The position numbers and the translations under genes were made by a program. The notes under the pieces are model-generated. The model was not told the DNA's origin. It saw only the letters and a program-made list of their open reading frames with translations, and ran no database searches. From a virus (Duplodnaviria > Caudoviricetes): DNA of 64,000 nt. This document shows, one piece after another, positions 1-58,617 of the stretch. The DNA is taken from positions 165-64,164 of IMG/VR virus record IMGVR_UViG_3300029319_000032. One strand, 5' to 3'. Position 1 is the first letter of the stretch. Every line of letters begins with the position of its first letter.

Positions 1-2
1 TA

Positions 3-841: not shown

Positions 842-867
842 TAGACTAAAAACTAAATTGGGAGTTT

Positions 868-2871: not shown

Positions 2872-2899
2872 GACTAAATCAGGGTTAGGAGAAAAAAAT

Positions 2900-3667: not shown

Positions 3668-3684
3668 CTTAGGAGTGAAATAAA

Positions 3685-5055: not shown

Positions 5056-5056
5056 A

Positions 5057-5491
5057 ATGGCTAAAGGTGCATTATTAGAGAAAAACAGTGGTGCTGGTGG
5101 TTTACTGTCAAACGTAGAGCACATTACTGCTGCAAAAACAATAGTAGAATCAGACTCAGGTAAAGTTTTTATGGTTTCTTCTGAAGGAGGAGCATATACA
5201 ATTACTTTACCTACAGCTTCAACAGCACAAAACGGAGCTGTGTACAAATTTATTGTACATGAGGAAACACCTACTAATGATGTTACAATCGCTGCAGGAA
5301 GTGCAATCATTTCATTAGTAATGAAAGATGCTGGCGGAGACGCTGCTAATTCAACTGCTGGAACTCAGGTTTCTAATATTATTTTAGAAGCTGCTTCTCA
5401 AAGAGGAGACTTTGTAGAACTTCTGTTCTGGAATGGTGAGTACTACGCTAATGGATTAAGCGCAATCAATGACGGTATTACAACATCATAA
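5057..5491 (+). CDS. Putative capsid decoration/accessory protein, copy A
   Basis: Small beta-rich, Ala/Gly/Thr-rich protein starting 2 nt after the MCP stop (MAKGALLEK); paralogue at 50710. Confidence 0.5.
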   Translation: MAKGALLEKNSGAGGLLSNVEHITAAKTIVESDSGKVFMVSSEGGAYTITLPTASTAQNGAVYKFIVHEETPTNDVTIAAGSAIISLVMKDAGGDAANSTAGTQVSNIILEAASQRGDFVELLFWNGEYYANGLSAINDGITTS

Positions 5492-5498
5492 TAGTTAT

Positions 5499-5537
5499 TA
5501 GGTACTATGGAGTGGGCTAGTCCCACTCCGAAACCTA
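5499..5537 (+). other. Intergenic RNA stem-loop (copy A)
   Basis: Inner stem GGAGTGGG/CCCACTCC and outer stem TAGGT/ACCTA; an equivalent structure sits at 51193-51232. Confidence 0.6.
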
Positions 5538-5565
5538 TAAAGAATTTTAAATAATAGGAGAAAAA

Positions 5566-5763
5566 ATGGCAAATTATAATACAACTACAAAGATTATTAT
5601 TAATGACCTTAGTGTTAAATCAGACTCAACTGCTGGTTCATTAGCTAAAGAGATTAATGATTATATTCAAACTTTAGATGATAGCACTAATGCTATTGTA
5701 GATATTCAAGCAGTAAAGCTTGATGCTTCTAGAGTTGCTTACATAGTAGTAGCTAAAGGATAA
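5566..5763 (+). CDS. Small conserved virion-operon protein
   Basis: SD AGGAG; paralogue at 51261 shares IINDLSVK and AVKLDASRVAYI. Confidence 0.75.
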   Translation: MANYNTTTKIIINDLSVKSDSTAGSLAKEINDYIQTLDDSTNAIVDIQAVKLDASRVAYIVVAKG

Positions 5764-6017
5764 TGGCTAATTGTCAACACTGCGACAAGCCTAATCCAGA
5801 AGGTTACTTTAACTGTCCTTCATGCGGGCTAAGAGCAGCTCCTAGCAAATGGAATACTAATTTTGTTATAAGAGAAGGTAATCCTTTTGCAACAGCAATT
5901 AGAAAAGACCAGATTGACATTAACCATATGTCAATGGAAGATGGTATAAAAAAGATGCAAGAAAGCAAGAAAAACAGCAAACCCACACCACGTGGGAAGG
6001 GAATAAGGGTAATGTAA
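5763..6017 (+). CDS. Small zinc-ribbon protein
   Basis: CQHC...CPSCG; paralogue at 51455. Confidence 0.7.
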   Translation: MANCQHCDKPNPEGYFNCPSCGLRAAPSKWNTNFVIREGNPFATAIRKDQIDINHMSMEDGIKKMQESKKNSKPTPRGKGIRVM

Positions 6018-6061
6018 TGTACGGAAAAAAGAAGAAAAGAAAAAAAGGTAAGAGATACTAA
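6017..6061 (+). CDS. Lys-rich micro-ORF MYGKKKKRKKGKRY
   Basis: Overlapping stop/start (TAATG) on both sides; a Lys-rich ORF with YGKKKK occupies the same position in copy B (51727). Confidence 0.5.
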   Translation: MYGKKKKRKKGKRY

Positions 6062-6207
6062 TGAGAGTAAAAGCTCCCAAAGGTTATCATTTTATGAAAA
6101 AAGGCAAAGGCTATGTTTTGATGAAACATGGAGCTAAGTTTAAAAGACATAAAGGAGCTTCATTGTCTATGCCTATGAAAGTAGTAAAAACTCACGGAGG
6201 AAAGTAA
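6061..6207 (+). CDS. Small basic protein (48 aa, MRVKAPKGYHFMKK...)
   Basis: TAATG coupling at both ends; below the ORF-track cutoff. Confidence 0.6.
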   Translation: MRVKAPKGYHFMKKGKGYVLMKHGAKFKRHKGASLSMPMKVVKTHGGK

Positions 6208-6443
6208 TGCCAAGAAAAAAAGCAGTAAGAAAAAGTACTAAAAGAAAAGTAGCACCAAAAAAGAAACGAAGCACTGCTAAGAGAAAGACTACTAGAAAGA
6301 AAGGTAGTCCTACTCCTACAAACAAAGCTTTGTATGCTAGAGTAAAGGCAGCAGCAAAACGTAAGTTTGATGTATATCCTTCTGCGTATGCTAACGCTTG
6401 GCTAGTTAGAGAATATAAAAAACGTGGTGGTGGCTACAGATAA
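6207..6443 (+). CDS. Small K/R-rich protein (DUF5872-like)
   Basis: LYARVKAAAKRKFDVYPSAYANAWLVREYKKRGG, identical in copy B. Confidence 0.7.
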   Translation: MPRKKAVRKSTKRKVAPKKKRSTAKRKTTRKKGSPTPTNKALYARVKAAAKRKFDVYPSAYANAWLVREYKKRGGGYR

Positions 6444-6715
6444 TGGCATATCAAGGTGGACTTAGAAAGTGGTTTAGAGAAGACTGGGTTGATATTGGTT
6501 CTAAAAAAAAGAAAGGTAAATATCAGAAATGCGGTCGTAAGTCTGCTAAGGGTAGTAAAAGAAAATACCCTAAATGTGTTCCAGCTGCTAAAGCTAGAAC
6601 AATGAGTGCTTCACAAAAAAGAAGTGCAGTAAAAAGAAAAAGAGCAAGAGCTCAAGGAGTTGGAGGTAAACCAACTAACGTTAGAACATTTGCTAGAAGT
6701 AGAAGAAAGAAATGA
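6443..6715 (+). CDS. Small K/R-rich protein
   Basis: GLRKWFxExWVDIG...KYPKCVP; near-identical paralogue at 51946. Confidence 0.75.
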   Translation: MAYQGGLRKWFREDWVDIGSKKKKGKYQKCGRKSAKGSKRKYPKCVPAAKARTMSASQKRSAVKRKRARAQGVGGKPTNVRTFARSRRKK

Positions 6716-6861
6716 GAAGAAGACAAACATTTGGAATAAAGCAAGTTAGACATACTAACGGAAAGAAAAAAACAAGACAAGGTAATAGTGTAAACACTAA
6801 ATATGGCAACAAGAATAGTAAAAAATACTATGTTAAAAAGTATAGAGGACAAGGTAAGTAA
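6712..6861 (+). CDS. Small basic protein (49 aa, ending KKYRGQGK)
   Basis: QVRHTNGKKKTRQG...KKYRGQG conserved at 52227; coupled start and stop. Confidence 0.7.
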   Translation: MRRRQTFGIKQVRHTNGKKKTRQGNSVNTKYGNKNSKKYYVKKYRGQGK

Positions 6862-7298
6862 TGGATAATGACTTAACAGGATTATTTCGAAGGCTTTTTG
6901 GAGAAAAGAGAAAAAAAAGCATAGAGGAAATCTATGGAGATATGATGATAGGGCTTAGAAGAAGAACTAACTTAATAAAAAATAGAGACCCATATATAGG
7001 TAAAGTTTATAAAAAAAGACTTGAAAAATTATTTGACATGGTACAAGACGAGGTCGGATATGACCTACCAAACAATGATAATATTCTTTTGTCCAAAGAT
7101 GATTTAAGAATGGTAGCAAATAGAACAGGATTTCTTTCTCCTAAGAGAACACCAGAAGGAATTGAACCAAGATATGTAGATAAAACTAGAAAAATGCCTA
7201 CGTATTCAGGTATTGGGCAAACTGGTTCAATAAATGTTTTGAGCGATGAAGATATATTAGAGCTTCTTTTAAGACAACCTGAGATAAGAGGTAAGTAA
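6861..7298 (+). CDS. Hypothetical protein (copy A-specific)
   Basis: 145-aa ORF coupled to its neighbours; an unrelated ORF sits at the equivalent site in copy B. Confidence 0.6.
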   Translation: MDNDLTGLFRRLFGEKRKKSIEEIYGDMMIGLRRRTNLIKNRDPYIGKVYKKRLEKLFDMVQDEVGYDLPNNDNILLSKDDLRMVANRTGFLSPKRTPEGIEPRYVDKTRKMPTYSGIGQTGSINVLSDEDILELLLRQPEIRGK

Positions 7299-8533
7299 TG
7301 GCTGATTTTAAAACAAGAATAGATGATTTAACAGGCTTTGCAAGTACTGATGACACAGCATTAAATGACTGGTTGTCAGCTGGTGCTCGTTCTGTAATGA
7401 ATGTACTTCCTCTAAACAAACTAGAGAGAGTAGCAAGCAATGAAAACTTTACAAACAATATAGATGTAGAGGGAAAAAAGATTTTAGCGGTTGTTAGAAA
7501 AGATAACAATCACGCAAGTAAGATTTATACACCATGTAGAAAATTACCACCTTCAATGATGGGTAGAGTAAATGACACAAACTATATGGAAGCTGCGTCA
7601 GAAAGTGACCCAGCATATATTATACAAAATGATGTTTTGAATACATATCCAGGTAGTAATGCAAGCAATGATAGTAGAGTTGTATTTGTAAACTCTTCAA
7701 TAACTGTAGCACATGGAGATAGTGCAATAGCAAACTTTCCTGATGAAGCAGAAGAAGCAGTAGTTTTATATGGAGCAAGAAATGCACTAAACAGACTAAT
7801 GAACGGCATGAATGCAATTAGTGCCTTAACTGTTAGCGTAAGTGCACCTAGTGCTCCAAGTATATCAACAGTTAGCTATTCAGCTGCTACAAATGCTGAT
7901 GCTAGCGCTACTGCAGTAGGAGCTATAACTGTTGCTACTGTTGCTAAAGCAGATATATCTGGAGATGTTCCTAGCTATACTAAACCAACACAAACTTTTG
8001 ATATAGCACAGTTTGAAACATTTTTAGAAACAAACGAAGATGTAGAATTAGCACAATTACAATTAGGTAGATTAAATAACGAGTTGGCTGAATATCAAGC
8101 TGATATACAAAACGAACTTAATGAATTTAACAAAGAAAATCAAAGATATCAAGCTAATGTGCAGGCAGAAATTTCAAAACATAATTCTGATTTACAAAAA
8201 GCATTAAGACAGGCAGAAATAGATGCTGCAGATGCTAGACAAGAATCACAACAAGCAACACAAGTTGACTTGGCAAACAAAGCGGCTGACCAAGCATTAG
8301 CATTGCAAAATGCAGCACAAACTATGGCAGCAGCAATACAAAACAACGATGATATTCTTAACAAATTTTCTGCTGAAATATCAAAGTATGCTGCTCAGGT
8401 AAACGACGAAATTCAAGAATATAATTCTAATTTACAAAAAGATATAGCAAAATATAGCTGGTATGAAAAACAATATGCTGCAATAGATGCAAGATATAAA
8501 GAACAAATACAAACCCTTCAAGGAGTATTATAA
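7298..8533 (+). CDS. Virion structural protein (adaptor-like N-terminus plus coiled coil), copy A
   Basis: N-terminal ~170 aa nearly identical to 52656; C-terminal Q/A/E coiled coil; position in the structural operon. Confidence 0.5.
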   Translation: MADFKTRIDDLTGFASTDDTALNDWLSAGARSVMNVLPLNKLERVASNENFTNNIDVEGKKILAVVRKDNNHASKIYTPCRKLPPSMMGRVNDTNYMEAASESDPAYIIQNDVLNTYPGSNASNDSRVVFVNSSITVAHGDSAIANFPDEAEEAVVLYGARNALNRLMNGMNAISALTVSVSAPSAPSISTVSYSAATNADASATAVGAITVATVAKADISGDVPSYTKPTQTFDIAQFETFLETNEDVELAQLQLGRLNNELAEYQADIQNELNEFNKENQRYQANVQAEISKHNSDLQKALRQAEIDAADARQESQQATQVDLANKAADQALALQNAAQTMAAAIQNNDDILNKFSAEISKYAAQVNDEIQEYNSNLQKDIAKYSWYEKQYAAIDARYKEQIQTLQGVL

Positions 8534-8874
8534 TGGCTGCGATAGAATTTACAGCAAAAGAAATTTATAGTAGAGTACTGCAAGCAGTTCCTGGTATATC
8601 AGAGAACTATGTACTAAACTTAATTAATGAAGCATTAATTGATATGGGTAGATACACCAATCAAATAGAAAATGCAAAAACAAACTTAGTGCATGACCAA
8701 CTATGGTATGCATTAGATGACGATGAATCAATAACTGTTAACAAGTTATTTAGATGTACAATACTTAATTCAGATGGAGAATATATAAAGATTCCTAGAT
8801 TAACAAATGGAGAGATAAAACAATTCTACAGTGAAACAAGTACAGCAGCTAATACAAACTGGACGGAGATATAA
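8533..8874 (+). CDS. Putative head-tail adaptor/tail protein, copy A
   Basis: LNLINEALIDMG motif; paralogue at 54143. Confidence 0.5.
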   Translation: MAAIEFTAKEIYSRVLQAVPGISENYVLNLINEALIDMGRYTNQIENAKTNLVHDQLWYALDDDESITVNKLFRCTILNSDGEYIKIPRLTNGEIKQFYSETSTAANTNWTEI

Positions 8875-9326
8875 TGGCTTTTGTAAGTAGCACATATAAA
8901 GACCCTAGTAAAACTTTTGTATGGTGGGTAGAAGGTGATAGACTAGCTATTGCTACCACAGAAGGAGATGGAAGTACAACAGAAACAGATAAAGGTAGAC
9001 TAAAAGCAGTACAGCTTGGTTCTACTGGAGACCAGATGATTGACGGTCTTGTTGTTTCTTATTATGCAGAACCAGATAAACTTACAAGCATTACTGGTAC
9101 AATAGATATAGATAATGTTTTACAACCAGCATTAATAGATTATGTAAAATCAAAAGCTTTGATGGACGCAGCTTCTAGAGCAACAGACCCAGGTCTTGCT
9201 CAAATTAGAATGGCGTCTGCACAACAATGTATGGCTAGTTATAAAGAAGCTGTACGCAGATACGGTATGAAGAAAAACGATAAAGTCGGCGGGACTAGAG
9301 CTGTAGTTCCAGCAGATATGAGATAA
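8874..9326 (+). CDS. Putative adaptor/tail tubular protein, copy A
   Basis: YYAEP...LIDYVK motif; paralogue at 54480. Confidence 0.45.
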   Translation: MAFVSSTYKDPSKTFVWWVEGDRLAIATTEGDGSTTETDKGRLKAVQLGSTGDQMIDGLVVSYYAEPDKLTSITGTIDIDNVLQPALIDYVKSKALMDAASRATDPGLAQIRMASAQQCMASYKEAVRRYGMKKNDKVGGTRAVVPADMR

Positions 9327-9336
9327 AGGGGCAATA

Positions 9337-9633
9337 ATGGAAGTAGGAAAAGACACTAAATTTACATTATCTTTAGAGACAGGTATTAGTATCGTAGTCA
9401 CTATAGGTATGATTATTGGTATGTGGTATTCTTTACAAGCAGAAATAGAACTTGCAAAAGAACTGCCAGAACCAGAGGTTTCACGTATGGAATATGATTT
9501 AAAAGACCAAATGATTCGTGATTCAATATTAAACACAGAGGGTAAAGTAGATAAGCTTGAAGAAAAAGTAGATGATATTAAAGAAGATACTAGAGCTATC
9601 ACTGAGACTCTTATAGACATGAATAACAAATAA
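9337..9633 (+). CDS. Membrane-anchored coiled-coil protein (holin/lysis-associated candidate), copy A
   Basis: One N-terminal TM helix followed by a coiled coil; paralogue at 54940. Confidence 0.5.
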   Translation: MEVGKDTKFTLSLETGISIVVTIGMIIGMWYSLQAEIELAKELPEPEVSRMEYDLKDQMIRDSILNTEGKVDKLEEKVDDIKEDTRAITETLIDMNNK

Positions 9634-9645
9634 TGAGGTTTACAG

Positions 9646-10029
9646 ATGAACAACAGATTTATATCATACTTGGTATTAACGCTCTGCTCATCACTATCTT
9701 GGTTGCACTCACAGTCAGTCAACTTAGATAGTTTTGCACAAATACAAGCGTTAAACATACAAAAATGCGCAGTAGTACAGGTTAATGCGTCTTGGAATCA
9801 CGCAAACAGAGTTAAGGTAGAAAAACTAGCTAAACTTTGTTATGTTGGAGAGATAGACTTAAATAACAAGGCTGTTGGTGCAGTAATTCAAAAAGAATGG
9901 AATATTAAAGTTGTCCCTACTATTATCATTCTTAAAGAAGGTAAAGAGGTTATGAGATATGAACCTGGTATCAGTATGAGATTTGATGAGCAAGAAGTTT
10001 TTAATAAGATTAAGAAGGAGATTCAATAA
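9646..10029 (+). CDS. Thioredoxin-like fold protein lacking CxxC, with signal-like N-terminus, copy A
   Basis: VVQVNASWN...WNIKVVPTIIILKEGKEV resembles the Trx fold (cis-Pro VPT motif). Confidence 0.55.
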   Translation: MNNRFISYLVLTLCSSLSWLHSQSVNLDSFAQIQALNIQKCAVVQVNASWNHANRVKVEKLAKLCYVGEIDLNNKAVGAVIQKEWNIKVVPTIIILKEGKEVMRYEPGISMRFDEQEVFNKIKKEIQ

Positions 10030-10175
10030 TGCCTGGATTAAAAGGGAAAATGAAAAATATAGATGTAGCTAAACCTTTTGGTAAAATTACTGCTGCAGAT
10101 TTTGCAGCGTTGAGAGCTATGAAACAAGGTAATGGTAAAGGTAAAATGAAAAATGCCAGCTCGCAAAAAAAGTAA
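10029..10175 (+). CDS. Small basic protein (48 aa, IDVAKPFGKITAADFAALR)
   Basis: Coupled TAATG start; absent from copy B. Confidence 0.5.
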   Translation: MPGLKGKMKNIDVAKPFGKITAADFAALRAMKQGNGKGKMKNASSQKK

Positions 10176-10467
10176 AAGAAAAGCAAAGTCTATAAGAAGA
10201 ACTACAAAAGGCAAGAATGCCAATTACAGACCTACTAAAAAAGGTGCTGGAATGACTAAAAAGGGTGTTGCTGCTTACAGAAGAGCAAACCCTGGAAGTA
10301 AATTAAAAACTGCTGTTACTGGTAAAGTAAAAAAAGGTAGCAAAGCGGCTAAAAGAAGAAAGTCTTATTGTGCAAGGTCTTTAGGACAACTGAAAAGAAG
10401 TTCTGCTAAAACTAGGAATAATCCTAATTCTAGAATAAGACAAGCACGTAGAAGATGGAAATGCTAA
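10153..10467 (+). CDS. Small K/R-rich protein, copy A
   Basis: GAGMTKKGVAAYRRANPGSKLKTAV...RKSYCARS...RRWKC, identical in copy B. Confidence 0.75.
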   Translation: MPARKKSKRKAKSIRRTTKGKNANYRPTKKGAGMTKKGVAAYRRANPGSKLKTAVTGKVKKGSKAAKRRKSYCARSLGQLKRSSAKTRNNPNSRIRQARRRWKC

Positions 10468-10482
10468 TTAATAGGAGGAATC

Positions 10483-10641
10483 ATGGGACCAATATTAGGT
10501 AAAGTTCTTACAAGTTTAGGTACAGAGAAGCTTATCAAAGCTATCATTATGCACCTAGGAGATTGGCTTGTAGCTAAATCATCTAACAAATTAGATGACA
10601 AACTATGGGCAGAAGTGAAAAAAACTCTAAACAAAAAATAG
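10483..10641 (+). CDS. Small amphipathic protein (52 aa, holin-like candidate)
   Basis: Strong SD AGGAGG; KSSNKLDDKLWAEVKK corresponds to KSDNKLDDEIWAEVKK at 55953. Confidence 0.65.
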   Translation: MGPILGKVLTSLGTEKLIKAIIMHLGDWLVAKSSNKLDDKLWAEVKKTLNKK

Positions 10642-10650
10642 GAGAGATAT

Positions 10651-10680
10651 ATGAACTGCGAATGCGGATGCGGGTGCTAA
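10651..10680 (+). CDS. 9-aa Cys-rich micropeptide MNCECGCGC (copy A)
   Basis: SD AGGAG upstream; identical peptide with 4 synonymous changes at 56116. Confidence 0.65.
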   Translation: MNCECGCGC

Positions 10681-12804
10681 GTGCCTAAACAAATGTTAAC
10701 ATTAAATGACTTTAGCGGAGGACTTAATACCAAGTCCTCTCCTAGGGATATTGCGTTCAATCAAGTTCAATCAGCTAGCAATGCTGTATTGTTAAATTCT
10801 GGTGTAGTTTATACATCAGTTGCTCCTACATCTAAAGGAACAGCTAGCGATATAGAAATAAGCGATTTTGTCAACACTGCTTTTACATTTAACTCTCAAT
10901 ACGATATATCATCAGCCCCAAATCCTGGTGACGGAGGTTATAGTAGAGGAAACTTCCAGGGAAGTCCTAAGGAAGTTATAACTTTACACGAAGGTTCAAC
11001 TGGAGCGTATAATATACGTTTTCTTTCAAGGAATTTTAATACTACTGGAAATTTATCTAGAAGCACTAATAATAGTATATCTGGTATTGCAAAACCTGTT
11101 TTTTATTACATAGATGGAACTTTGTATGTATGTGATGAAAGCCATGTTGGTAAATTAGGAGATGTTGCTTTTCCAGTAAGAACTGCAATAAGGTTTGTAG
11201 ATACAAACAGATTTGGAGTTACTACATTTGCTTGGGTTCAAGGAGCAGCGGTAGGAACTACAAGCGATGCTAATGCTAATATAAACTCTGACAGTTCTTT
11301 TTCTGCTACCTTAAACGTAGATGGTGAATTTGAAATGATTTACCAAATAGAATCTAGTTCTGGAGGCGGTGGATTTGAAGCAGGAGATTATGAATGGTCT
11401 TACACTTACGTCGACTTAACTGAAGATGAAAGCTTGCCTCACGTATGGACAAGCGCACCTAGCGCTGCAAGTTTGTCTACTGGTCACTTTTTTACAGGAG
11501 TTGGTGTTAAAATAAATGTAGCTAGTGCATTTAGAGAAAAGGAAAAAGGATTTAGAATATACACTAGAAGAAAAGACAAGAACGAAAGATGGAGTTTGTT
11601 TTTAGATGTAGATTATGAAAGAGGCGTAAGAAAAAATTTATTTGATGATTACAGTTCTTGGGGTGGCTCTGGAACATACAGAAGCTCTGGGACAAAAGAG
11701 GTAACATCTTTAGTAATAGAATCTCCAGCCTTAGATACTTATGATAGTATTAATGGATATTCACACACAGAAGAAAGTATAGACATAGATGCATATAAAA
11801 GTGCTTGTGTTGCACAAAGAAGAGCTTGGGTATGCAATGTATCCAAAGAAGATAAAACTTTCGATGACAGAATTTATTATACTCCAGTAAACAGATTTAA
11901 CACTTTTCCTGATTCATACTTTCTTGATATAGGTATTAACGACGGAGACTCTTTTGTTGCAGTAGAGTCTTTAGGTAATAGAATTATTGCTTTTAAACAA
12001 TCTAAAATATATGTAATAAATGTATCTTCTTCATCAGATGCTGGTTGGTATTTAGAAGCAGAATACGATGGACATGGATGCACTAAAAAAGAAGCATTAT
12101 GTAAAACACCTTTTGGTCTTTGTTGGGCTAATGAAGAAGGAGTATTTATATTTGATGGAACATCTATACCAAAAGAATTAACAGAAAATATATCAGATGA
12201 CACTTGGTCTACTGATTTTACATCTACTATGTCTTTAGCATTTGACCAAAAATACAAACAACTATATGTAGCTGTAAATTTATTAGAAAACGGTGACAAT
12301 AAAATATATGTTTATGACTTTGCTAAACAAGCTTGGAGTATAGTAACTAGAAGCGCAGCAGATTCACCAGCACAATCTAATTTCGTTCATTTGCCTGACG
12401 GTATATATGCATATGAGTTTGAAGAAGATTCAGGAACTGGTACAGCTGAAAATATTACAGTCAAAAAATATAGTTTGCTAGACTTAGGTGGAAAGAATTT
12501 AACATTACAAACAAAAGATATAGACTTTAATGCACCTGGAAAAATTAAAAAGGTATATAAAGTTTATGTAACAGCTAGAGATGCAACAGCGGGTACGGTG
12601 TTAACAATGAAATATGCAACTGATGGAAGTACCTCTTTTGGAAACTCAGCAAATGCAACCATAAATAGCAATCAATATGAGGTAAATGCTTTTACAGTTA
12701 ATGCAGATTGTGAGTCTATAGCATTAGAATTTACTAGCGATGGTAAAGTAGAGATAAGTGATATTACAATAGAATACAGAGCAAAATATAAGAGAGCGTC
12801 ATAA
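10681..12804 (+). CDS. Tail tubular/nozzle (stabilization) protein, copy A
   Basis: 707 aa; N-terminal DFSGGLNT motif and beta-propeller-like C-terminal half typical of podovirus nozzle proteins; paralogue at 56149. Confidence 0.65.
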   Translation: MPKQMLTLNDFSGGLNTKSSPRDIAFNQVQSASNAVLLNSGVVYTSVAPTSKGTASDIEISDFVNTAFTFNSQYDISSAPNPGDGGYSRGNFQGSPKEVITLHEGSTGAYNIRFLSRNFNTTGNLSRSTNNSISGIAKPVFYYIDGTLYVCDESHVGKLGDVAFPVRTAIRFVDTNRFGVTTFAWVQGAAVGTTSDANANINSDSSFSATLNVDGEFEMIYQIESSSGGGGFEAGDYEWSYTYVDLTEDESLPHVWTSAPSAASLSTGHFFTGVGVKINVASAFREKEKGFRIYTRRKDKNERWSLFLDVDYERGVRKNLFDDYSSWGGSGTYRSSGTKEVTSLVIESPALDTYDSINGYSHTEESIDIDAYKSACVAQRRAWVCNVSKEDKTFDDRIYYTPVNRFNTFPDSYFLDIGINDGDSFVAVESLGNRIIAFKQSKIYVINVSSSSDAGWYLEAEYDGHGCTKKEALCKTPFGLCWANEEGVFIFDGTSIPKELTENISDDTWSTDFTSTMSLAFDQKYKQLYVAVNLLENGDNKIYVYDFAKQAWSIVTRSAADSPAQSNFVHLPDGIYAYEFEEDSGTGTAENITVKKYSLLDLGGKNLTLQTKDIDFNAPGKIKKVYKVYVTARDATAGTVLTMKYATDGSTSFGNSANATINSNQYEVNAFTVNADCESIALEFTSDGKVEISDITIEYRAKYKRAS

Positions 12805-15800
12805 TGCCAAAATCTGGTGAACATAAAGTCAATTATATTGACTCTTTCTTTAGACAAAGACCATCAATAAACAGCGTCAGAGAAGGAGAGACAATATCTT
12901 TTCTTGAAGACGGCAAACTAATCAAACAAGAAAAAAGAAATGGTGTAGTATACCAATCTGAGTTTGCTGAAGCAATACCTAAACTATCTACAGACGAAGT
13001 AGAAACTGGAGTTATACGTGAAATTATAGCAGGCGATGGTCTTACTGGTGGTGGGTTTGCTGGAGAGATAACTTTAAATGTAGTTGGTGGTACAGGTATT
13101 ACTGCTAATGCAAATGATATAGCTATTGATTCTACAGTAACAACTCTTACTGGCTCACAAACTCTTACAAACAAAACTTTAACTGCACCAACTTTTACAG
13201 GTACAGCACAAGGTGCAAATCTTACACTTACTGGAGATTTGACAGTAGGTGGTACTACAATTACTTTAAATTCACAAAACTTACAAGTAAAAGATAAAAA
13301 TATTGTATTAAACTATTTAGATGGAGATGCAAGTTCTACTGCAGATGGAGCAGGTATAACAATACAAGATGCTGTAAATTCTTCAACTGATGCAACAATA
13401 TTGTGGGATAATTCAAGCCCTACAAATAGTCCAGGAGAGTTTGATTTTTCTCACTCTATCAATGTTACTGGAAATATATCAGTATCAGGTACTGTAGATG
13501 GAAGAGATTTAGCTACAGATGGTTCTAAGCTTGATGGAATAGAAGCAAGTGCTACTGCAGACCAAACAGCTTCAGACATCAGAGGTTTAGGCTTTTTTGA
13601 TACATCGAACGATGGTGCTACAAGTGGACTAGATTCTGATTTATTAGACGGACAACACGGAAGTTATTATTTAGATTTTGGTAACTTTGTAATAGATGAT
13701 GATGAAATACCTATTGCAAAACTAGCTTCTGATAGTGTTAGTTATGGTGGAGTTAGTGTTACTTTAGGTTCTTCAGATGCAACACCAGCATTTGATTTAT
13801 CAGACGCTACTAGTTTGCCTATAGTAGCTGGTACATCTGGTACACTTAGTGTGGCTAGAGGTGGTACTGGTGCTACTTCTTTAACAGATAATTCAGTATT
13901 AACTGGAACAGGTACAAGTGCTATTACAGCAGAAGCTAATCTTACTTTTGATGGAAGTACTTTAAATGTTAATGGAGATATTAAAGTAGGTGTAGGAGCA
14001 GATGCACAACTAACTTCTGTTAATAATGGATTAGCAATCAGAAATCTTGTATCTAATGCTGATATGTTCTTTTATGTAAATGATGGTGGTGTTGATACTG
14101 AAGCAATGAGAATAGATGGTGCTACTGCTAATGTCGGTATAGGAACTACATCACCTGGAAATACCTTACAAGTATCAGGAAGTGGCTCAACACCTATGTC
14201 ATCTGAAAGAACTACCAATAGTGGTGGGTTTGCTATGCTTCAAGGTAAAATGGGAGATAGTGCATCAACAACAGCAGGTCATGTTTATTCTGCTTTAGTA
14301 GCAGGTATTGAAGATAATACTAATGGTGCAGAAGATGGATATTTTGCAGTAGAAGTATCTGAAGGTGGAAGTGGTAGTGAAAAATTAAGAATTAAATCTA
14401 ATGGAAATGTCGGTATAGGAGTTACAAATCCTTCAAGAAAGCTACAAGTAGCAGGTGCAATAGAGTTATCAACAGCAGACACCACAATAGATACAAATAA
14501 TTTTGCTTTAAGAAGGGGTGCAAGTGGAGAAGGATTTTTAGATGCACCTGGTAATATTCAAATGAATATTGATACAAATAATAATCAATCTGATGCTTAT
14601 TTTGCAGTATGCCGCGATGCAGGTTCAACACCATTATTTAAAGTTTTAGAATCAGGTGCAATAACATTTAATAATGCTTATACATTTCCTACTGCAGATG
14701 GTAGTACAGGACAATTTTTAAAAACAAATGGTAGTGGGAGTGTGCAATTTTCAGATGGAGATATTGATTACACAGATTTAGGTAGTGGTAGTTTAGGTCT
14801 GAACGACAATAATAAAACTTTAATATTTAATTCATCAAGTGCTTCTTGGAGTGTTGATTTTCCTGCGACTACATTATTTACAGCAAATACAAATGTAGAT
14901 AATAGAATACTTACTGCCACAGGAGCAACAAATGGTGTAGCAGTTAATGGAGAATCTAATCTTACTTTTGATGGAAGTAATTTAAAATTAGCTATTGGTA
15001 ATGCATCGCCTGATGCACATCTACACATTGGAGATAATTCAAGTAATTTTACTCTTGGCACTACATCAGGAGATAGTATTGATTTACTAAAATTAGAAAC
15101 CGATTCTACTAATGCAAATCAGTTAATATTTTCATCTGAAAGAGTATCAGATGGAAGCACTTGGACTTCTACAAGAGAAAGAATTAGAAGAAGAGTAGAT
15201 ACAAGTAATATGGGATATATCCAGTTTGGTAGTAGTTTTGATGCTACAAATGCACACATGATTTCTTTTGGAGAAGTCGGTGTTGGCGATTATATGGGTA
15301 TTACTGGAGATGGAAAAATTGGTATAGGAACTACATCACCTTCAGGAAAACTCCATGTATCAGGAGATGCATATTTTACAGGTGGAGATGTTGGTGTTAA
15401 TACTACAAATCCAAGATTACCACTTCATGTAGCAAGTACAGATGGAGACGATGACCCTGCAAGTGCTTCAGCAACTGGTGCATTTTTTGTTACCAATAGT
15501 GCAGGAAGTTATGGATTACATATGGGAGTTTCATCAGATGGAAGTGGGTGGATACAATCACAATCTGTAACAAGTGCAAATGAATATAATTTAAACTTAA
15601 ATCCTATTGGTGGTAATGTCGGTATAGGCACTTCATCACCAAGTAAAAAGCTACACATTAAAGATTCTACAAATGAAATAGTATTTATTGAAAGTTCAGA
15701 TGATAATGCAGATATTGTTGGTGCAGATACTGGTGGGAGTACAAGATTTAGAAGTGCAAGTGGGATATTTCAATTTTTCACAGGTGGAAGTGCAAGTAAT

Positions 15801-18266
15801 GCAAGTGCAAGTGGCTCTTCATTTGCCATGGAAATTGATGAAAACCAACGAGTGGGTATAGGAACTTCAGCACCTGCATATAAATTAGATGTCTTTGGAA
15901 CAACAAGAATCTATAGTGCTTCAGGAGATGCTGATTTAAGAATAGAAGGTGGTGCAAGTAATACTACTTCATTTATGATTAGAAATGGGGCTGGTAATAA
16001 TAGAGTAGATTTCTTAACTGGTGGTTCTAATGCTATGACTATTAATTCTTCTCAAAATGTCGGTATAGGAACTACATCACCAGCAACATTATTACACATA
16101 AATAAAAGTCAGTTTAATCCAACAAGCACTTCTGCATTACCAATAGGAAGATTTTCAGGTAGTTATGGTGGTGGACTTGGATTTTTTGACACAAAAGAAG
16201 CAGGTATGTATGCAATAGACAATGGAGATACTTTTAACTTTTATGTCGGTAGAACTATAGATACTGATACACCTGCAAGTAAAATTGTAATGACAATGAA
16301 GTCATCAGGTAATGTAGGAATAGGAGTTACATCACCAAGTGCTAAGTTAGATATTGATAGTACAAGTGGAACAGCATTATATGTAGATGGTGGTGTCGGT
16401 GGTGATAATATAGCAGAATTTCACAGAACAGATGGTGCTACAGCAAGTGTAAAAATCCATGCAGGAGGTGGCGACCCACAAATAACTTATAGAGATACTG
16501 ACAGAGTATTTTCTATGGGTATAGATGCTTCTGAAAATCATTTTAAAATAGCCGAACATACTGACATAGGTGCTAACGAAAGATTTCGAATTGCAGATAG
16601 TGGCAATGTTATAATGTTTAATGATGTCGGAATAGGAACTTCATCACCTGAAGGTAAAGTCCACATTTATAATGGAGATGCAAGTGTAGCACCTGATGGA
16701 GATGCTGATGAATTAGTAGTAGAAAATTCAAGTAGGTCAGGTATTAGTATTTTATCAGGAGAAGGTAGTACAGATACTGGTGCAGTAATTTTTGGTAGTG
16801 CAAATGATGCTTTTGGTGCAGGACTTCAATATAGCTATCATGGTAATTCTTTAAAACTTATGACTGCAAATACTGGTCACTCTTTAATTTTTTCAACTGA
16901 TAATAATTCTGAAGCCATGAGAATAAACTCATCAGGTAATGTCGGTATAGGAACTAACTCACCTACAGAAAAATTACAAGTAGATGGTAATATAAAAATT
17001 GAAGATGGTGGTATTTATCCTGCATTATTGTTTGATGATGTTGATACAGGTGCTTATATAGCAAATAATGCCAATGGTTTATTTATTGGTAAAACAAATA
17101 GTCCAAGCTCAGCTAATGATATAATGAAACTTGATTTGACTAATTCGAGAGTCGGTATAGGAACTACTTCACCAGGTGCTTTATTCACAGTAAGAAAAGA
17201 TGGAACACAAGCATCAAGTGTTAGCACAACATATCAAATACAAACAGTATCTAATTCTAATGGTGGTATTGCTATACAAGCAGGAGATAGTTCTCATGGA
17301 TATTTAGTATTTGGAGATAATGGCAATTATGATGCAGGTAGAATTGCCTATGGAAATAGTTCAGGTGCTATGGGATTTTGGACAGCAGATAATGAAAGAA
17401 TGAGAATTAACTCTACTGGATTAGGTATAGGAACTACATCACCACAAGGACATTTAGATATTAATACAGAATCAGCAGAAGCAACTAAAGTTGTTATTAA
17501 TGGAGAAGTCAGTCAAGATAAATTATTACTTATTAGACATCTTGAAAATAGTGAACTTTCAACAACTAATGCTTTAGGATTTATAGGTTCAGTTGTAGAC
17601 AATGTTTTAACATTAGGACATTATAATTCAAGTGGTTCAGAAGTTCAAGTATTGCATATTACAGAAGGTGCAGATGTAGGAATAGGAACTACTTCACCTA
17701 CATATAAATTAGATGTTGAAAGTTCAGATACATATATTGCACATTTTGTTTCAACTGGAACAAATGCTTTTATGCAATTAACTACAACTACTCACGGAGT
17801 AACTACCGGAGATGGTTTAATTTGGGGTATAGATAGTAATGCAGATACTTACTTTACTAATAGAGAAAATGCTTCTATGAGATTTTCTACTAATAATACT
17901 GAAGCATTTAGAATTGACAATAGCCAAGATGCACATTTTGACCAAGATGTTATAGCATTCTCTACTACACCTTCTGATATAAGACTAAAAGAAAACTTTG
18001 AAAAAATAGAAAATGGATTAGATGTAGTATCTCAATTAGAAGGACATACATTTAATTGGAAAAAAGGTGGAGAAAGATTAAGTGCAGGATTTAAAGCACA
18101 AGAAGTAGAAAAGATTTTACCGCACTTAGTAGATGAAAAGAAACTTCCACTAAGAGCAGATGACGATAAAGAATACAAGATTTTACGATATGAGGAAATG
18201 ATACCTTATTTAGTAGAAGCAATTAAACAACTAAAAACAGAAATAGAGGAATTGAAAAATGGCTAA
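12804..18266 (+). CDS. Long tail fibre with repeated GNVGIGTTSP modules and C-terminal peptidase S74 intramolecular chaperone, copy A
   Basis: About 13 VGIGTxSP repeats; SDIRLKEN...GFKAQEVEKILP...LVEAIKQL chaperone signature. Confidence 0.85.
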   Translation: MPKSGEHKVNYIDSFFRQRPSINSVREGETISFLEDGKLIKQEKRNGVVYQSEFAEAIPKLSTDEVETGVIREIIAGDGLTGGGFAGEITLNVVGGTGITANANDIAIDSTVTTLTGSQTLTNKTLTAPTFTGTAQGANLTLTGDLTVGGTTITLNSQNLQVKDKNIVLNYLDGDASSTADGAGITIQDAVNSSTDATILWDNSSPTNSPGEFDFSHSINVTGNISVSGTVDGRDLATDGSKLDGIEASATADQTASDIRGLGFFDTSNDGATSGLDSDLLDGQHGSYYLDFGNFVIDDDEIPIAKLASDSVSYGGVSVTLGSSDATPAFDLSDATSLPIVAGTSGTLSVARGGTGATSLTDNSVLTGTGTSAITAEANLTFDGSTLNVNGDIKVGVGADAQLTSVNNGLAIRNLVSNADMFFYVNDGGVDTEAMRIDGATANVGIGTTSPGNTLQVSGSGSTPMSSERTTNSGGFAMLQGKMGDSASTTAGHVYSALVAGIEDNTNGAEDGYFAVEVSEGGSGSEKLRIKSNGNVGIGVTNPSRKLQVAGAIELSTADTTIDTNNFALRRGASGEGFLDAPGNIQMNIDTNNNQSDAYFAVCRDAGSTPLFKVLESGAITFNNAYTFPTADGSTGQFLKTNGSGSVQFSDGDIDYTDLGSGSLGLNDNNKTLIFNSSSASWSVDFPATTLFTANTNVDNRILTATGATNGVAVNGESNLTFDGSNLKLAIGNASPDAHLHIGDNSSNFTLGTTSGDSIDLLKLETDSTNANQLIFSSERVSDGSTWTSTRERIRRRVDTSNMGYIQFGSSFDATNAHMISFGEVGVGDYMGITGDGKIGIGTTSPSGKLHVSGDAYFTGGDVGVNTTNPRLPLHVASTDGDDDPASASATGAFFVTNSAGSYGLHMGVSSDGSGWIQSQSVTSANEYNLNLNPIGGNVGIGTSSPSKKLHIKDSTNEIVFIESSDDNADIVGADTGGSTRFRSASGIFQFFTGGSASNASASGSSFAMEIDENQRVGIGTSAPAYKLDVFGTTRIYSASGDADLRIEGGASNTTSFMIRNGAGNNRVDFLTGGSNAMTINSSQNVGIGTTSPATLLHINKSQFNPTSTSALPIGRFSGSYGGGLGFFDTKEAGMYAIDNGDTFNFYVGRTIDTDTPASKIVMTMKSSGNVGIGVTSPSAKLDIDSTSGTALYVDGGVGGDNIAEFHRTDGATASVKIHAGGGDPQITYRDTDRVFSMGIDASENHFKIAEHTDIGANERFRIADSGNVIMFNDVGIGTSSPEGKVHIYNGDASVAPDGDADELVVENSSRSGISILSGEGSTDTGAVIFGSANDAFGAGLQYSYHGNSLKLMTANTGHSLIFSTDNNSEAMRINSSGNVGIGTNSPTEKLQVDGNIKIEDGGIYPALLFDDVDTGAYIANNANGLFIGKTNSPSSANDIMKLDLTNSRVGIGTTSPGALFTVRKDGTQASSVSTTYQIQTVSNSNGGIAIQAGDSSHGYLVFGDNGNYDAGRIAYGNSSGAMGFWTADNERMRINSTGLGIGTTSPQGHLDINTESAEATKVVINGEVSQDKLLLIRHLENSELSTTNALGFIGSVVDNVLTLGHYNSSGSEVQVLHITEGADVGIGTTSPTYKLDVESSDTYIAHFVSTGTNAFMQLTTTTHGVTTGDGLIWGIDSNADTYFTNRENASMRFSTNNTEAFRIDNSQDAHFDQDVIAFSTTPSDIRLKENFEKIENGLDVVSQLEGHTFNWKKGGERLSAGFKAQEVEKILPHLVDEKKLPLRADDDKEYKILRYEEMIPYLVEAIKQLKTEIEELKNG

Positions 18267-18510
18267 AGTAATCGCAGAAAAAGTACAAGAACAAGTACAA
18301 GTTGATTCACCTAAAATGGTTGAAATCAAGCATATAAGAACAATGCAAGATGCTTCAGGTAATGATGTAGAAGTAGTAGATTATACTGATGTAAAATCAG
18401 TAGATGAAGCTATAGCAGATTGTGAAGCATACAAAGCTAATTTACAAGCACAACTTACTGAATGTGAAGCAGAATTAGCAGACTATATAGCAATTAGAGA
18501 CGCTGAATAA
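18259..18510 (+). CDS. Small tail-fibre-associated protein
   Basis: SD GAGG; follows the fibre gene; acidic coiled coil. Confidence 0.55.
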   Translation: MAKVIAEKVQEQVQVDSPKMVEIKHIRTMQDASGNDVEVVDYTDVKSVDEAIADCEAYKANLQAQLTECEAELADYIAIRDAE

Positions 18511-55952: not shown

Positions 55953-56105
55953 ATGAACGTAGTAATCAGTAAATTATTAACAGGTTTATTAAGTGAAAAA
56001 ATCTTAAAAGCTGTGTTATTAAAACTTGGTGATTATTTCATCAAGAAGTCAGACAATAAATTAGATGATGAAATCTGGGCTGAAGTTAAAAAAGCCCTAA
56101 AATAA
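55953..56105 (+). CDS. Small amphipathic protein, copy B
   Basis: Paralogue of 10483; SD AGGAG. Confidence 0.65.
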   Translation: MNVVISKLLTGLLSEKILKAVLLKLGDYFIKKSDNKLDDEIWAEVKKALK

Positions 56106-56115
56106 GGAGAAGGAC

Positions 56116-56148: not shown

Positions 56149-58617
56149 ATGCCTAGAAGGTCATTACAATTAAATGATTTTAGTGGAGGACTTAATACTA
56201 AGTCCTCTCCTAGGGATATTGCACCCAATCAGGTCCAGAAAGCAGACAATGTTTTCTTATCAAATCCAGGTCTTATAGAGGCGACTTCAGATGCTTCTAG
56301 TAAAAGCTCTGCAGAAACAATGACCCATACTCAGCAGGGTAATGGAGCATTTATATTTAACTTACAATTTGATGTAGATTCAAGTGAGACTACAGAACAG
56401 CCAACTCAAATAATAGCTTATCCTATAGATAAGGGTGCTGGTAATACTACTATACAATTTTTTAGAAGAGACTTTGATACTACAGGTAATTTTACTTTAG
56501 CAGATGAATCTGGAGACGCAGAAATAGATATGCAAGTAACTGGAGCTGTACAGCCAGTATATTATTTTGTAGATGGCGTACTTCATGTATCTGATAAACT
56601 TGCAGTAGATTCAAGTATTACAGCAGAGCCTAGAAGAATGCCTTATGTAAAAGAATCTAGATTTGGTACAGACGTAACAGGATTTTTAGACACTACTATG
56701 AAAGTAGAAAGAAGCACCACTCAGTTTGAAGCAATAACAAAAGGTACAAGTTTTACTGACCCAGGCATTGGTGAGTTTAGCGTAAAGCTACAGACAGACC
56801 CTACATTAGATTCTCAGTCATTTTTTGATGTTATTGAAGATGGTGATACAGATAACTTTCTTGCAGTTACACCGAACCCAAATGAAACAAATCCAGACCC
56901 TACTGCTGATATAAAATTAACAGATAAATTAATTCATTTAAAACTAACAGATGCAAATAATATGTCTTCTGTTACTTTAAATTATGGAGGAAGTAGTGGT
57001 ATAGCTACTGGAGGCATAGCAAATCTTGTAGGAGAAATTATACATATTAACGGTGAAGCTATGAGAGTAAGAAGTACAAACACTATGAACGGTTCATCAA
57101 CTTTAGATGTACTACAACTTCTTGTAGACAGAGATGTATTTGGAACTGGTGCTTTAGAACACGCTACTGGAGCAAAAGTTCAAACAACGTTAACAACAAG
57201 TATTAGTGTTACTGGTGGTGGTTGGGAAGCTGGTTCTTATGAGTTTTGTCATACAGTAATTGATTTACAAGATAATGAAACACTACCACAAGCTCCACAA
57301 TCAACTTTGTTTCCTATAACATCAGGTGCATATTTTACCAATGTAGGATTTAGAATAAAAGATACTAGTTTTAGTGATAGAAAAAATGAAAAAGGCGTAA
57401 GAATTTATACAAGAAAAAAAGACGGTAATGGCAGATGGATTTTGTTTTTAGATGTAGATTATCAAAGAGGAGTAAGAACTAATTTATTTGAAGACTATAC
57501 TGAGCTTTCAGTAGCTGATACAGACTTTATGCAAGTAGTAGATATAGATGTAGTTAACCCTTCATTAGATACTTATGAAAGTATAAATGGTTACTCTCAA
57601 GATGAAGAGAGTATAGATTTTGGTACAAAAGGTGGCTTCAAAGCAGCTACAGTATGTGCTAGAAGAGCATGGGTAGCCAATGTAAGAAAAGATGACAAAG
57701 TATACGATGACAGAGTTTACTATAGTCCAGTAAATAGATTTGCTACATTCCCAGACAGTTATTACTTAGATATTGGAATTAGTGACGGTGATTCATTTAC
57801 AGCATTACATAGTTTAGGAAACAGATTGTTAGCATTTAAACAGAAGAAGCTGTACGTAATTAATGTATCTTCTACATCTGATGCTGGATGGTTTTTAGAA
57901 GCTGAATATGATGGTATGGGATGTAGACAACAAGAATCAGTATGTAAAACACCATTTGGAGTTTGTTGGGTTAATGATGATGGAGTATATATATTTGATG
58001 GCTCTTCAAGTCCAAAAGAATTAACTGCAAACTTAGATGATGCTACATGGAGAAATAACCAGACTACAAAAAACCCAGCCATTGGTTACAATAATAAATA
58101 TAAACAACTTAATGTAGTACAAGATGCTGCAGCAGATACAGATGTTTTTGTTTTTGATTTTGCAAGACAAGGATGGAGTATAACAAAATCTATAGGTACT
58201 TCTGGTATATCTAATTTTCTACCATCGTTTGATGGGTTATATTTTTTAGAATATGGAAGTAGCAATACTAAAACTGTAAAATTACTAACAGGGGATGTAG
58301 GAACAAAAGCAATAGATTTGAGAACTAAAGATATAGACTTTGGTAACCCTGGATTAGTTAAAAAAGTAAAAAGAGTTTTTGTTACTGCAAGAGGAAATGG
58401 AACAAACCTTACATTAGGATATGCTAATGACGGAGAGTCAAGCTATAATGATTTATCTGCTCAGGCTTTGGGAACAGAGTATGCTACAAAAGAATTTACT
58501 ATTGCTGCAAACGATAGAGATTGTGAATCTATGTCTTTTAAACTTACAGCAGATGGAGCTGTAGACATAAATGACATTAACATAGATTACAGACAAACTA
58601 ACAAGAGACCTTCATAA
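56149..58617 (+). CDS. Tail tubular/nozzle protein, copy B
   Basis: Paralogue of 10681, ~115 aa longer owing to an internal insertion. Confidence 0.65.
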   Translation: MPRRSLQLNDFSGGLNTKSSPRDIAPNQVQKADNVFLSNPGLIEATSDASSKSSAETMTHTQQGNGAFIFNLQFDVDSSETTEQPTQIIAYPIDKGAGNTTIQFFRRDFDTTGNFTLADESGDAEIDMQVTGAVQPVYYFVDGVLHVSDKLAVDSSITAEPRRMPYVKESRFGTDVTGFLDTTMKVERSTTQFEAITKGTSFTDPGIGEFSVKLQTDPTLDSQSFFDVIEDGDTDNFLAVTPNPNETNPDPTADIKLTDKLIHLKLTDANNMSSVTLNYGGSSGIATGGIANLVGEIIHINGEAMRVRSTNTMNGSSTLDVLQLLVDRDVFGTGALEHATGAKVQTTLTTSISVTGGGWEAGSYEFCHTVIDLQDNETLPQAPQSTLFPITSGAYFTNVGFRIKDTSFSDRKNEKGVRIYTRKKDGNGRWILFLDVDYQRGVRTNLFEDYTELSVADTDFMQVVDIDVVNPSLDTYESINGYSQDEESIDFGTKGGFKAATVCARRAWVANVRKDDKVYDDRVYYSPVNRFATFPDSYYLDIGISDGDSFTALHSLGNRLLAFKQKKLYVINVSSTSDAGWFLEAEYDGMGCRQQESVCKTPFGVCWVNDDGVYIFDGSSSPKELTANLDDATWRNNQTTKNPAIGYNNKYKQLNVVQDAAADTDVFVFDFARQGWSITKSIGTSGISNFLPSFDGLYFLEYGSSNTKTVKLLTGDVGTKAIDLRTKDIDFGNPGLVKKVKRVFVTARGNGTNLTLGYANDGESSYNDLSAQALGTEYATKEFTIAANDRDCESMSFKLTADGAVDINDINIDYRQTNKRPS

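Follow-up and report, generated by a model that had tools for sequence, protein, structure and literature searches.

A nine-codon, cysteine-rich open reading frame probably under coding selection in uncultured marine podoviruses

Polycysteine short open reading frames (ORFs) of mycobacteria are cysteine-responsive attenuators, the 'Cys ribulon', in which the next gene is influenced by translation of the short ORF; they are reported to be leaderless, located 5' of cysteine-metabolism genes and provided with a stable RNA duplex that hides the next ribosome-binding site, RBS, until stalled ribosomes open it (bioRxiv 10.1101/834739). Minigenes reported to sequester tRNA have 3–8 codons (PMC2490762). 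We describe here a micro-ORF of nine codons, coding for MNCECGCGC, that is found at positions 10651–10680 of a 64,000-nt stretch of DNA (the window from here on) of the virus record IMGVR_UViG_3300029319_000032 (Duplodnaviria; Caudoviricetes), and again at 56116–56145. Other short ORFs and Cys-rich peptides to which it may be compared are the lambda bar minigenes, with 2–3 codons, the metallothioneins, of which the shortest known have about 25 residues, the phytochelatins, made enzymatically with gamma-linkages, and the known leader peptides, which respond to a ligand, antibiotic or amino acid linked to the gene they regulate.

Like the mycobacterial polycysteine ORFs, the phage ORF is an unannotated, very short and Cys-codon-rich upstream cistron of a polycistronic unit, with Cys in four of its nine codons and a position directly 5' of the next gene. 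With toxic minigenes such as lambda bar it shares the tiny size and a Shine-Dalgarno (SD) sequence driving an ORF whose translation could tie up a specific tRNA, and with leader peptides and coupled upstream cistrons in general the strong SD, the few codons and a stop adjoining the next start. The peptide has the high Cys content of metallothioneins, arranged as C-x-C-x-C-x-C in the main form and as C-x-C-x-C-x-x-C in the forms with an added Gly or Trp. As in metallothioneins and in the (Glu-Cys)n-Gly phytochelatins, small Gly, Glu and Asn residues accompany the cysteines, and the main form has no His or aromatic residues.

Selection on the reading frame

The two copies of the micro-ORF in the window and their SD sequences are:
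10651..10680, + strand: micro-ORF copy A, ATG AAC TGC GAA TGC GGA TGC GGG TGC TAA, coding for MNCECGCGC, stop TAA
56116..56145, + strand: micro-ORF copy B, ATG AAC TGT GAA TGT GGA TGT GGG TGT TAA, coding for MNCECGCGC, stop TAA followed by TAG
10640..10644, + strand: AGGAG of copy A, overlapping the TAG stop of the upstream gene, 6 nt 5' of the ATG
56105..56109, + strand: AGGAG of copy B, 6 nt 5' of the ATG

The copies differ at four positions, each of them the third base of a Cys codon and all synonymous. The TAA of copy A is followed directly by the GTG (10681) of the next gene, while in copy B TAA TAG precede the ATG (56149), and the gap between the preceding gene and the micro-ORF is 9–10 nt in both. 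A preliminary description of this DNA had reported both ORFs at these positions, each with an AGGAG SD and directly 5' of a tail nozzle gene, separated by synonymous Cys wobble changes only and surrounded by diverged flanks. All of this agrees with the codon comparison, with the identity of the flanks (54% for the upstream proteins, 78% for the local DNA) and with an AlphaFold model of the next gene product, which matches podovirus nozzles. A degenerate pattern of the core matches the window at 2 places and matches none of 100 shuffled versions. A control pattern (SD plus M-x-C-x-C-x-C-x-C-stop, with a second codon not starting with A) had 0 matches in all IMG/VR contigs, and the candidate of other CxCxCxC micro-ORFs in viruses was dropped on this result. 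Read-through or fusion with the neighbours was also rejected. The upstream gene, the ORF and the nozzle gene are in a common frame in copy A but not in copy B or in other loci, copy B has two consecutive stops, and a Cys-rich N-terminal extension or C.C.C motif was found in 0 of 120 called nozzle homologues.

The window covers nearly all of the 64,164-base record. Positions 1–18,500 and 45,200–64,000 are collinear with an offset of about 45.4 kb (78% identity for 10171–10803 against 55641–56271), and the record consists of about 1.4 lengths of two distinct, related 45-kb phage genomes, head to tail. Since these collinear ends are only 68–97% identical, copies A and B are orthologues in two phages and not paralogues. 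The two ORFs of the preliminary description are thus real, but they are one locus in two collinear genomes and not a duplication inside one genome. Strains that occurred together were probably assembled here into a chimeric concatemer, and other IMG/VR contigs of 69–90 kb (e.g., those behind L016 and L114/L139) likewise have two copies of the locus or of its small gene.

A DNA pattern for the exact peptide with a TAA stop matched 66 IMG/VR contigs, in nine nucleotide haplotypes, with all differences confined to Cys wobble sites and GGG/GGA. Wherever these contigs had enough flank, the micro-ORF was located between a gene of 50–52 aa resembling the phrog_402 family and a nozzle-type gene. The pattern search of viral databases proposed in the preliminary description therefore places the micro-ORF 5' of nozzle-type genes in many uncultured marine phages. 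A scan with the CECGCGC core gave, among the matches listed, copies with a TAG stop, MNCECGCGCVR overlapping the GTG start of a gene of 411–416 aa, MNCECGCGCC and MNCECGCGCG, which overlap the gene of a 95-aa membrane protein through TAATG, MNCECGCGCGQ followed by 12 nt with a separate SD and then the nozzle gene, and MSCECGCGCV with a TGA stop; cores embedded in long ORFs belonged to unrelated Cys-rich or repeat proteins and were set aside. Considering all loci fetched from IMG/VR, metagenomes and metagenome-assembled genomes (MAGs), the family was seen 175 times, a number of sightings and not of contigs, as loci from separate searches overlap; these amount to 74 unique contexts (±60 nt), 26 versions of the nucleotide sequence and 8 of the peptide. 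Of the 74 unique contexts, 71 have an SD-like motif within 16 nt 5' of the micro-ORF. The four Cys are unchanged in 8/8 peptide versions and the Glu never changed, whereas N was replaced by S once and the first G by Q once. Two lineages have a G or W inserted before the last Cys, and 0–2 extra residues are found at the C-terminus. Among the fetched loci, neither the annotated records nor the protein names given by their sources mention the micro-ORF; gene callers discard ORFs as short as nine codons.

Peptide-pattern searches presuppose the peptide, and further sampling was therefore carried out via neighbouring genes. We used a pattern fixed only on the two flanking genes, with 56–86 free bases between them, which is blind to the ORF content. 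Among 63 IMG/VR loci recovered in this way, 59 coded for MNCECGCGC, 3 for MNCECGCGGC and 1 for MNCECQCGWCI; among 42 metagenome loci the main form was found in 39 and MNCECGCGGC in 3. An intact four-Cys ORF was thus present in 63/63 and 42/42 loci, in two collections that overlap. Sampling through the upstream protein gave 80 loci, 24 with MNCECGCGC, 4 with MNCECGCGGC, 2 with MNCECGCGCVR and 50 with a different context. When a distant nozzle was used instead (22 usable loci), the micro-ORF was found within 2.5 kb upstream in 9/9 loci of one clade and was absent in 13/13 of its sister clade, whose nozzles are 46% identical. In the 104 sources reached through neighbouring proteins, the best core match had 0 mismatches in 36, 1 in 4 (the form with the additional Gly) and at least 4 in 64, so that no decayed copy, i.e., a core with 2–3 mismatches, was detected among them. 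No frameshift, start loss or nonsynonymous drift with the motif kept, the observations that the preliminary description had named as contrary to its proposal, was found in the 105 flank-anchored loci or in the 104 sources.

Site variation was analyzed in 53 unique 330-nt regions with the nine-codon form; the 7 indel variants were left out and the pattern-fixed sites were excluded from the flanks. The p-values are indicative only, as the sites have a common phylogeny. Codon positions 1 and 2 varied at 0/16 sites of the micro-ORF and at 52/106 sites of the flanking genes (Fisher p = 6.8e-5), while for position 3 the numbers were 4/8 and 42/53 (Fisher p = 0.09). Inside the micro-ORF itself, the comparison of positions 1 and 2 (0/16) with position 3 (4/8) gave p = 0.007, and diversity at the four Cys wobble sites was 0.41–0.50. 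Synonymous changes AAC/AAT and GGG/GGA/GGT also occur. The indels are in frame (insertions of a GGC or a TGG codon), the stop is TAA, TAG or TGA, and the peptide may be extended at its C-terminus by C, G, GQ, V, VR or I. Selection on the translated frame is indicated by the period of three bases, by insertions that preserve the frame, by a stop that moves yet is always near, and by the kept ATG and SD. The purifying selection that the preliminary description had proposed from two copies is in this way strongly supported far beyond them, and we consider it very probable, judging from the pattern of substitution, that the micro-ORF is a real coding ORF under selection.

A putative micropeptide and other explanations

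We infer that the micro-ORF is translated. The AGGAG located 6–9 nt 5' would drive synthesis of a peptide of 9–11 residues, M-[N/S]-C-E-C-[G/Q]-C-G-(G/W)-C plus 0–2 residues, with selection acting very probably on the encoded residues, foremost the four cysteines, instead of on the nucleotides as such. The micro-ORF would be part of a late polycistronic block in which small lysis and membrane genes are followed by the nozzle and the fibres and, because its stop abuts or overlaps the next start, ribosomes that finish it probably start again on the gene that follows. The most likely role would be that of a free, thiol-rich peptide, synthesized late in infection, that binds metal or acts via its thiols, a gene-encoded minimal ligand similar to metallothioneins or phytochelatins. 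This role is speculative, and the idea of a minimal metallothionein comes from the composition of the peptide only. We judge the chances that the peptide itself, and not the act of translation, is the functional product to be evenly balanced, and put forward metal or thiol chemistry specifically as a tentative suggestion. The preliminary description had proposed a metal-binding peptide or a leader that senses cysteine or metal, and both are still candidates. A stand-alone product is favoured over a leader dedicated to the nozzle, since the ORF persists with differing downstream genes and the next gene of one lineage has an SD of its own. Non-Cys residues are also largely conserved, which argues against a pure Cys-codon sensor.

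Several observations weigh against a functional peptide. The sample is phylogenetically shallow, with one dominant clade and sites that are not independent. The micro-ORF is dispensable, being absent in the 13 sister-nozzle loci among the 22, where the gene similar to phrog_402 abuts the next gene, and the Cys residues of the nozzle track the nozzle phylogeny and not the presence of the micro-ORF. The wobble positions of AAC, GAA, GGA and GGG are invariant in the main clade, and the rare GGG is used; this invariance hints at a constraint at the nucleotide level, perhaps a weak SD serving the next gene. Free peptides of nine residues usually have a short life in cells. Contigs from RNA libraries (3 runs, 3 studies) reach from the upstream gene through the micro-ORF to the nozzle start and count in favour of the micro-gene, with a single change inside it (10665 C>T, synonymous), but such contigs may contain DNA and say nothing on ribosomes. 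The peptide is predicted from DNA, and any link to a metal or a partner protein would be conjectural. An additional nucleotide-level constraint at the non-Cys wobble positions was also considered as a candidate in its own right and was not significant, zero wobble diversity being found as well in 15 of 32 flank codons with invariant residues.

One RNA feature could be located at the junction of copy A:
10672..10686, + strand: weak 6-bp hairpin GGGUGC/UAA/GUGCCU (-4.2 kcal/mol), in which the last micro-ORF codons are paired with the nozzle start codon

The function could reside in the translation of four Cys codons 5' of the next gene and not in the peptide, so that scarce charged tRNA-Cys, as in SAR11-type hosts limited in reduced sulfur, would stall ribosomes over the junction and alter the synthesis of the downstream late protein. 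The junctions lend themselves to such coupling, as in most classes the stop lies 0–3 nt from the next start or overlaps it (TAAGTG, TAAATG, TAA TAG ATG, TAATG or a GTG start inside the ORF) and the next gene then lacks an AGGAG of its own; tight packing of stops and starts is, however, general in this gene block and not specific to the micro-ORF. The four Cys, counted as residues, never change, but N, E and G are nearly invariant too. The copy A micro-ORF uses the minor codons TGC (28 of 107 Cys codons) and AAC and the rare GGG (47 of 985 Gly codons). In the hairpin the last ORF codons pair with the nozzle start, and a change from C-G to U-A tracks the GTG or ATG start, but the hairpin is weak (-4 kcal/mol), belongs to the main clade only, has 3 unique exceptions and is absent in GGA lineages, and the folds are no more stable than those of shuffled sequences. 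The downstream gene varies by lineage, the lineage with 12 nt and a separate nozzle SD keeps the micro-ORF, and the downstream tail proteins hardly use Cys, which leaves no obvious logic for a Cys-dependent gate. The precedent would be the mycobacterial polycysteine short ORFs, which are reported to be leaderless and 5' of cysteine-metabolism genes (bioRxiv 10.1101/834739), and the phage micro-ORF is neither. On balance, we regard control by translation of the Cys codons as rather unlikely. A conserved RNA structure was rejected as a candidate, single-sequence folds being inconsistent (z from -1.8 to +0.9), no Rfam family was found at the locus at E <= 1, and no promoter or terminator signal there rose above chance.

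A strongly translated minigene might also act as a sink, where early drop-off of peptidyl-tRNA ties up tRNA-Cys and lowers translation in the host, whereas synthesis of the late phage proteins, nearly free of Cys, goes on. The ORF is indeed very short, with a strong SD and Cys in 4/9 codons, and the late structural proteins are extremely poor in Cys (4 of 4,571 residues in the tail genes at 12804–26589, compared with 107 of 13,581, or 0.79%, in the phage ORFs altogether). Lambda bar minigenes would be a phage precedent. Minigenes of 3–8 codons are reported to sequester tRNA as peptidyl-tRNA (PMC2490762), but the 9–11 codons found here are at or past the length for efficient drop-off. Such a sink leaves the conservation of E and G unexplained, Cys is present in other phage genes of the window, and we hold this explanation to be very unlikely. 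Even less credit is given to an RNA or DNA element made of a (TGY-GRR) hexamer repeat (a weak SD, a standby site or a protein-binding site) with an incidental ORF. The sequence can be read as four TGYGNN hexamers, the wobbles of GAA and the first GGA are invariant save for one change of GGA to CAA, and purine-rich GGA/GGG lies 5–12 nt 5' of the next start. Nevertheless, the variation is strictly of period three, the ATG and SD are always kept, the stop always comes 0–2 codons after the last Cys, indel lengths are all divisible by three, no covarying structure or Rfam match was found, and the spacers flanking the ORF show free variation, with 13 versions of the 12 nt 5' of the ATG. As for a neutral passenger, conserved merely through the close kinship of the sampled genomes, many loci are near-duplicates (74 unique contexts under the 175 sightings), but the flanking genes vary at half of codon positions 1 and 2 and the micro-ORF at none, and it is unchanged between lineages with nozzles about 30% identical, which makes mere kinship an extremely improbable cause.

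Outside the micro-ORF cysteine is scarce in this phage, which we count in favour of a functional peptide. Within the tail and fibre proteins (12804–26589) there is 1 Cys in the 1820-aa fibre and 0 in a protein of 1629 aa, and some early genes of the minus strand are Cys-rich, e.g., the 90-aa ORF at 29899–30171 with 8 Cys.

Neighbouring genes, sister clade and host

The genes around the two copies are:
10153..10467, + strand: DUF6321 basic protein, 104 aa (Pfam PF19846, E 1e-11), two genes 5' of the micro-ORF
10483..10641, + strand: helical protein of the phrog_402 family, 52 aa (phrog_402, E 4e-9), the usual upstream neighbour
55953..56105, + strand: phrog_402-like protein of the second genome, 50 aa, 54% identical to the 52-aa protein of copy A
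10681..12804, + strand: predicted tail nozzle protein, 707 aa, GTG start, from an AF2 (AlphaFold) model (predicted local distance difference test score, pLDDT, 83.3; predicted template modelling score, pTM, 0.79) and Foldseek
56149..58617, + strand: predicted nozzle protein of the second genome, 822 aa, 47% identical to the copy A nozzle (50% over 637 columns in another alignment)

The phrog_402-like domain ends 8–13 nt 5' of the micro-ORF in all context classes but one, as judged from C-terminal sequences, and its gene is a more constant companion of the micro-ORF than any downstream gene. The 50 of 80 loci with a different context (L088–L147) have a phrog_402-like paralogue, 85–96% identical to that of the window, directly 5' of a gene starting LKLKKRGIVIPDQHYPLE. 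This gene belongs to an unknown family and has a TTG start (ATG in one locus), and the window has no such gene; its start presumably resembles that of metallophosphoesterases. The DUF6321 gene is the sole part of the region with cultured relatives, with 73–80% nucleotide identity to Pelagibacter phages over query positions 66–369 only. It is common to cultured pelagiphages and a Methylophilales phage (70–80% nucleotide identity), and as the synteny around it differs and is not common to those phages it looks like a mobile small gene. Further upstream, at 9646–10029, there is a 127-aa protein with an N-terminus like a signal peptide or lipobox and no Pfam or PHROG match; a stretch of it, 'VVQVNASWN', we take by eye to be thioredoxin-like, without the catalytic cysteines.

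The downstream protein had no sequence-level match in PDB, Pfam or PHROGs. Its AlphaFold model, built with an alignment of 35 homologues, has as top Foldseek matches the nozzle chains of portal-tail complexes, with E values from 6e-16 to 1e-10 and probability 1.0. These include the cyanophage A4 portal-tail complex (9k09_U, E 6e-16), SU10 (7z4b, E 5e-15), P22 gp10 (8eap, E 4e-13) and T7 gp12 (7boy, E 3e-10), and the model thus supports a podovirus tail nozzle. In relatives the micro-ORF lies inside a cluster of small membrane and lysis genes, with a GTA_holin_3TM holin (phrog_3427, 5e-26; PF11351), the phrog_402-like protein and the 95-aa membrane protein among its members. The next gene is, depending on the lineage, the nozzle (in several diverged N-terminal types), the 411–416-aa protein or the 95-aa membrane protein; one lineage has 12 nt and a separate SD between micro-ORF and nozzle, and the nozzles of these other lineages are only 29–31% identical to that of the window. 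The lineages with MNCECGCGCVR (L152:2724-5164 and L173) contain 1–2 tandem paralogous genes of about 370–430 aa, starting MSDKKTTMLDLAGSPSF, between the micro-ORF and the nozzle gene, and no family match was found for these MSDKKTTMLDLAGSPSF-type paralogues. Co-evolution with Cys677 of the nozzle was considered and rejected. This residue is Cys in 32 alignment rows from ORF-bearing lineages and Lys in 3 rows without the ORF, but it follows the nozzle phylogeny and not the presence of the ORF, and L195 has the ORF and no Cys at this position.

The sister clade, which lacks the micro-ORF, has a Cys-containing gene of a different kind close by:
L235-L245 and L248 (e.g. L237:1062-1172, L243:1498-1647): Cys3 membrane mini-protein, just upstream of the holin gene

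It codes for 36–49 aa with a W-C...C-x-C tail and was present just 5' of the holin gene in 12/12 loci with enough upstream sequence, and in no fetched ORF-bearing locus. The latter include the closely related L195, which has the micro-ORF and no mini-gene although its nozzle nests in the clade bearing the mini-gene (support 81/95 and 80/91), so that the complementary distribution of the two Cys elements extends to close relatives. The two sites are about 700 nt apart and one recombination could swap both. These data give no more than a hint that one of the two elements functionally replaces the other.

The window codes for a P22-like portal, an SU10-type major capsid protein and a long fibre that includes an S74 chaperone domain. 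A search of the window for tRNA genes, tRNA-Cys included, found none. The lineage is one of uncultured marine podoviruses that share one gene with pelagiphages. A tblastn search with the nozzle protein gave no match in 50,697 phage records, where a 65-nt query over the micro-ORF had chance matches only (E = 6). The G+C content of 33–37% and the shared DUF6321 gene suggest a SAR11-type marine host. In the genomes of 185,579 species of bacteria and archaea the pattern had a single match. A host copy or prophage was rejected, as the match falls in the same phage locus, carried by a 17-kb contig that had been binned into an Ilumatobacteraceae MAG, and gives no host gene. The contig (L224, JALQUZ010000027.1, 17.4 kb) carries the small gene, a micro-ORF with an extra in-frame ATG and a MPKKEYKILGFHG-type nozzle, and is either mis-binned phage DNA or a hint of the host.

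Comparison with known systems

The most ambitious interpretation, which we find doubtful, would make this four-thiol nonapeptide the smallest conserved phage gene yet described, a late product of abundant marine, probably SAR11-infecting, podoviruses that serves either as a metal or redox ligand for lysis or tail maturation or as a gauge of tRNA-Cys or reduced sulfur. If the gauge version were true, completion of an almost Cys-free virion would be tied to the sulfur status of a host unable to assimilate sulfate, and in the same interpretation the Cys3 mini-protein of the sister clade suggests a thiol function in two interchangeable forms. Within its neighbourhood no coding element is as strongly conserved as the micro-ORF, which is found in a widespread marine phage group. 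If the peptide is made, it would be, to our knowledge, among the shortest conserved products encoded by phages, and a rare case in which selection on a nine-residue product can be demonstrated from metagenomes alone. The system bears on micropeptide chemistry, on translational coupling and on a possible link of late phage expression to host sulfur or metal status in what are probably the most abundant bacteria of the ocean.

Each of the known systems differs from the phage locus in several respects. Unlike the leaderless mycobacterial ORFs, the phage ORF has an AGGAG SD and is internal to a late operon, with RNA-library contigs that run through from the upstream gene. The gene downstream is a nozzle, or a small membrane or unknown protein of the structural module, and not one of cysteine or sulfur metabolism. 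The Cys of the phage ORF are alternating instead of consecutive, its non-Cys residues are conserved and no conserved duplex was found; where mycobacteria have the duplex that hides the RBS, the phage shows a 6-bp hairpin of -4 kcal/mol in one clade, with 3 unique exceptions and fold z values from -1.8 to +0.9. The tRNA-sequestering minigenes that have been studied contain 2–8 codons, whereas the phage ORF, although it bears an SD, has 9–11 and is conserved at the level of residues. No sensing link like that of known leaders is apparent for the phage ORF, whose downstream gene changes between lineages. Compared with the precursors of ribosomally synthesized and post-translationally modified peptides (RiPPs), nine residues leave no room for a leader, and no enzyme families of this kind were present in the neighbouring genes, the part of the genome that was scanned. 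A literature text search for CECGCGC and MNCECGCGC, with supplementary small-ORF lists outside its scope, gave no match. Metallothioneins are longer, the phage peptide with its 9–11 residues and four thiols being outside the range of sequence and length of the known families. Among conserved Cys-rich short ORFs of bacteria and phages, the micro-ORF is unusual in its size, in its phage setting and in the strength of the population-level evidence.

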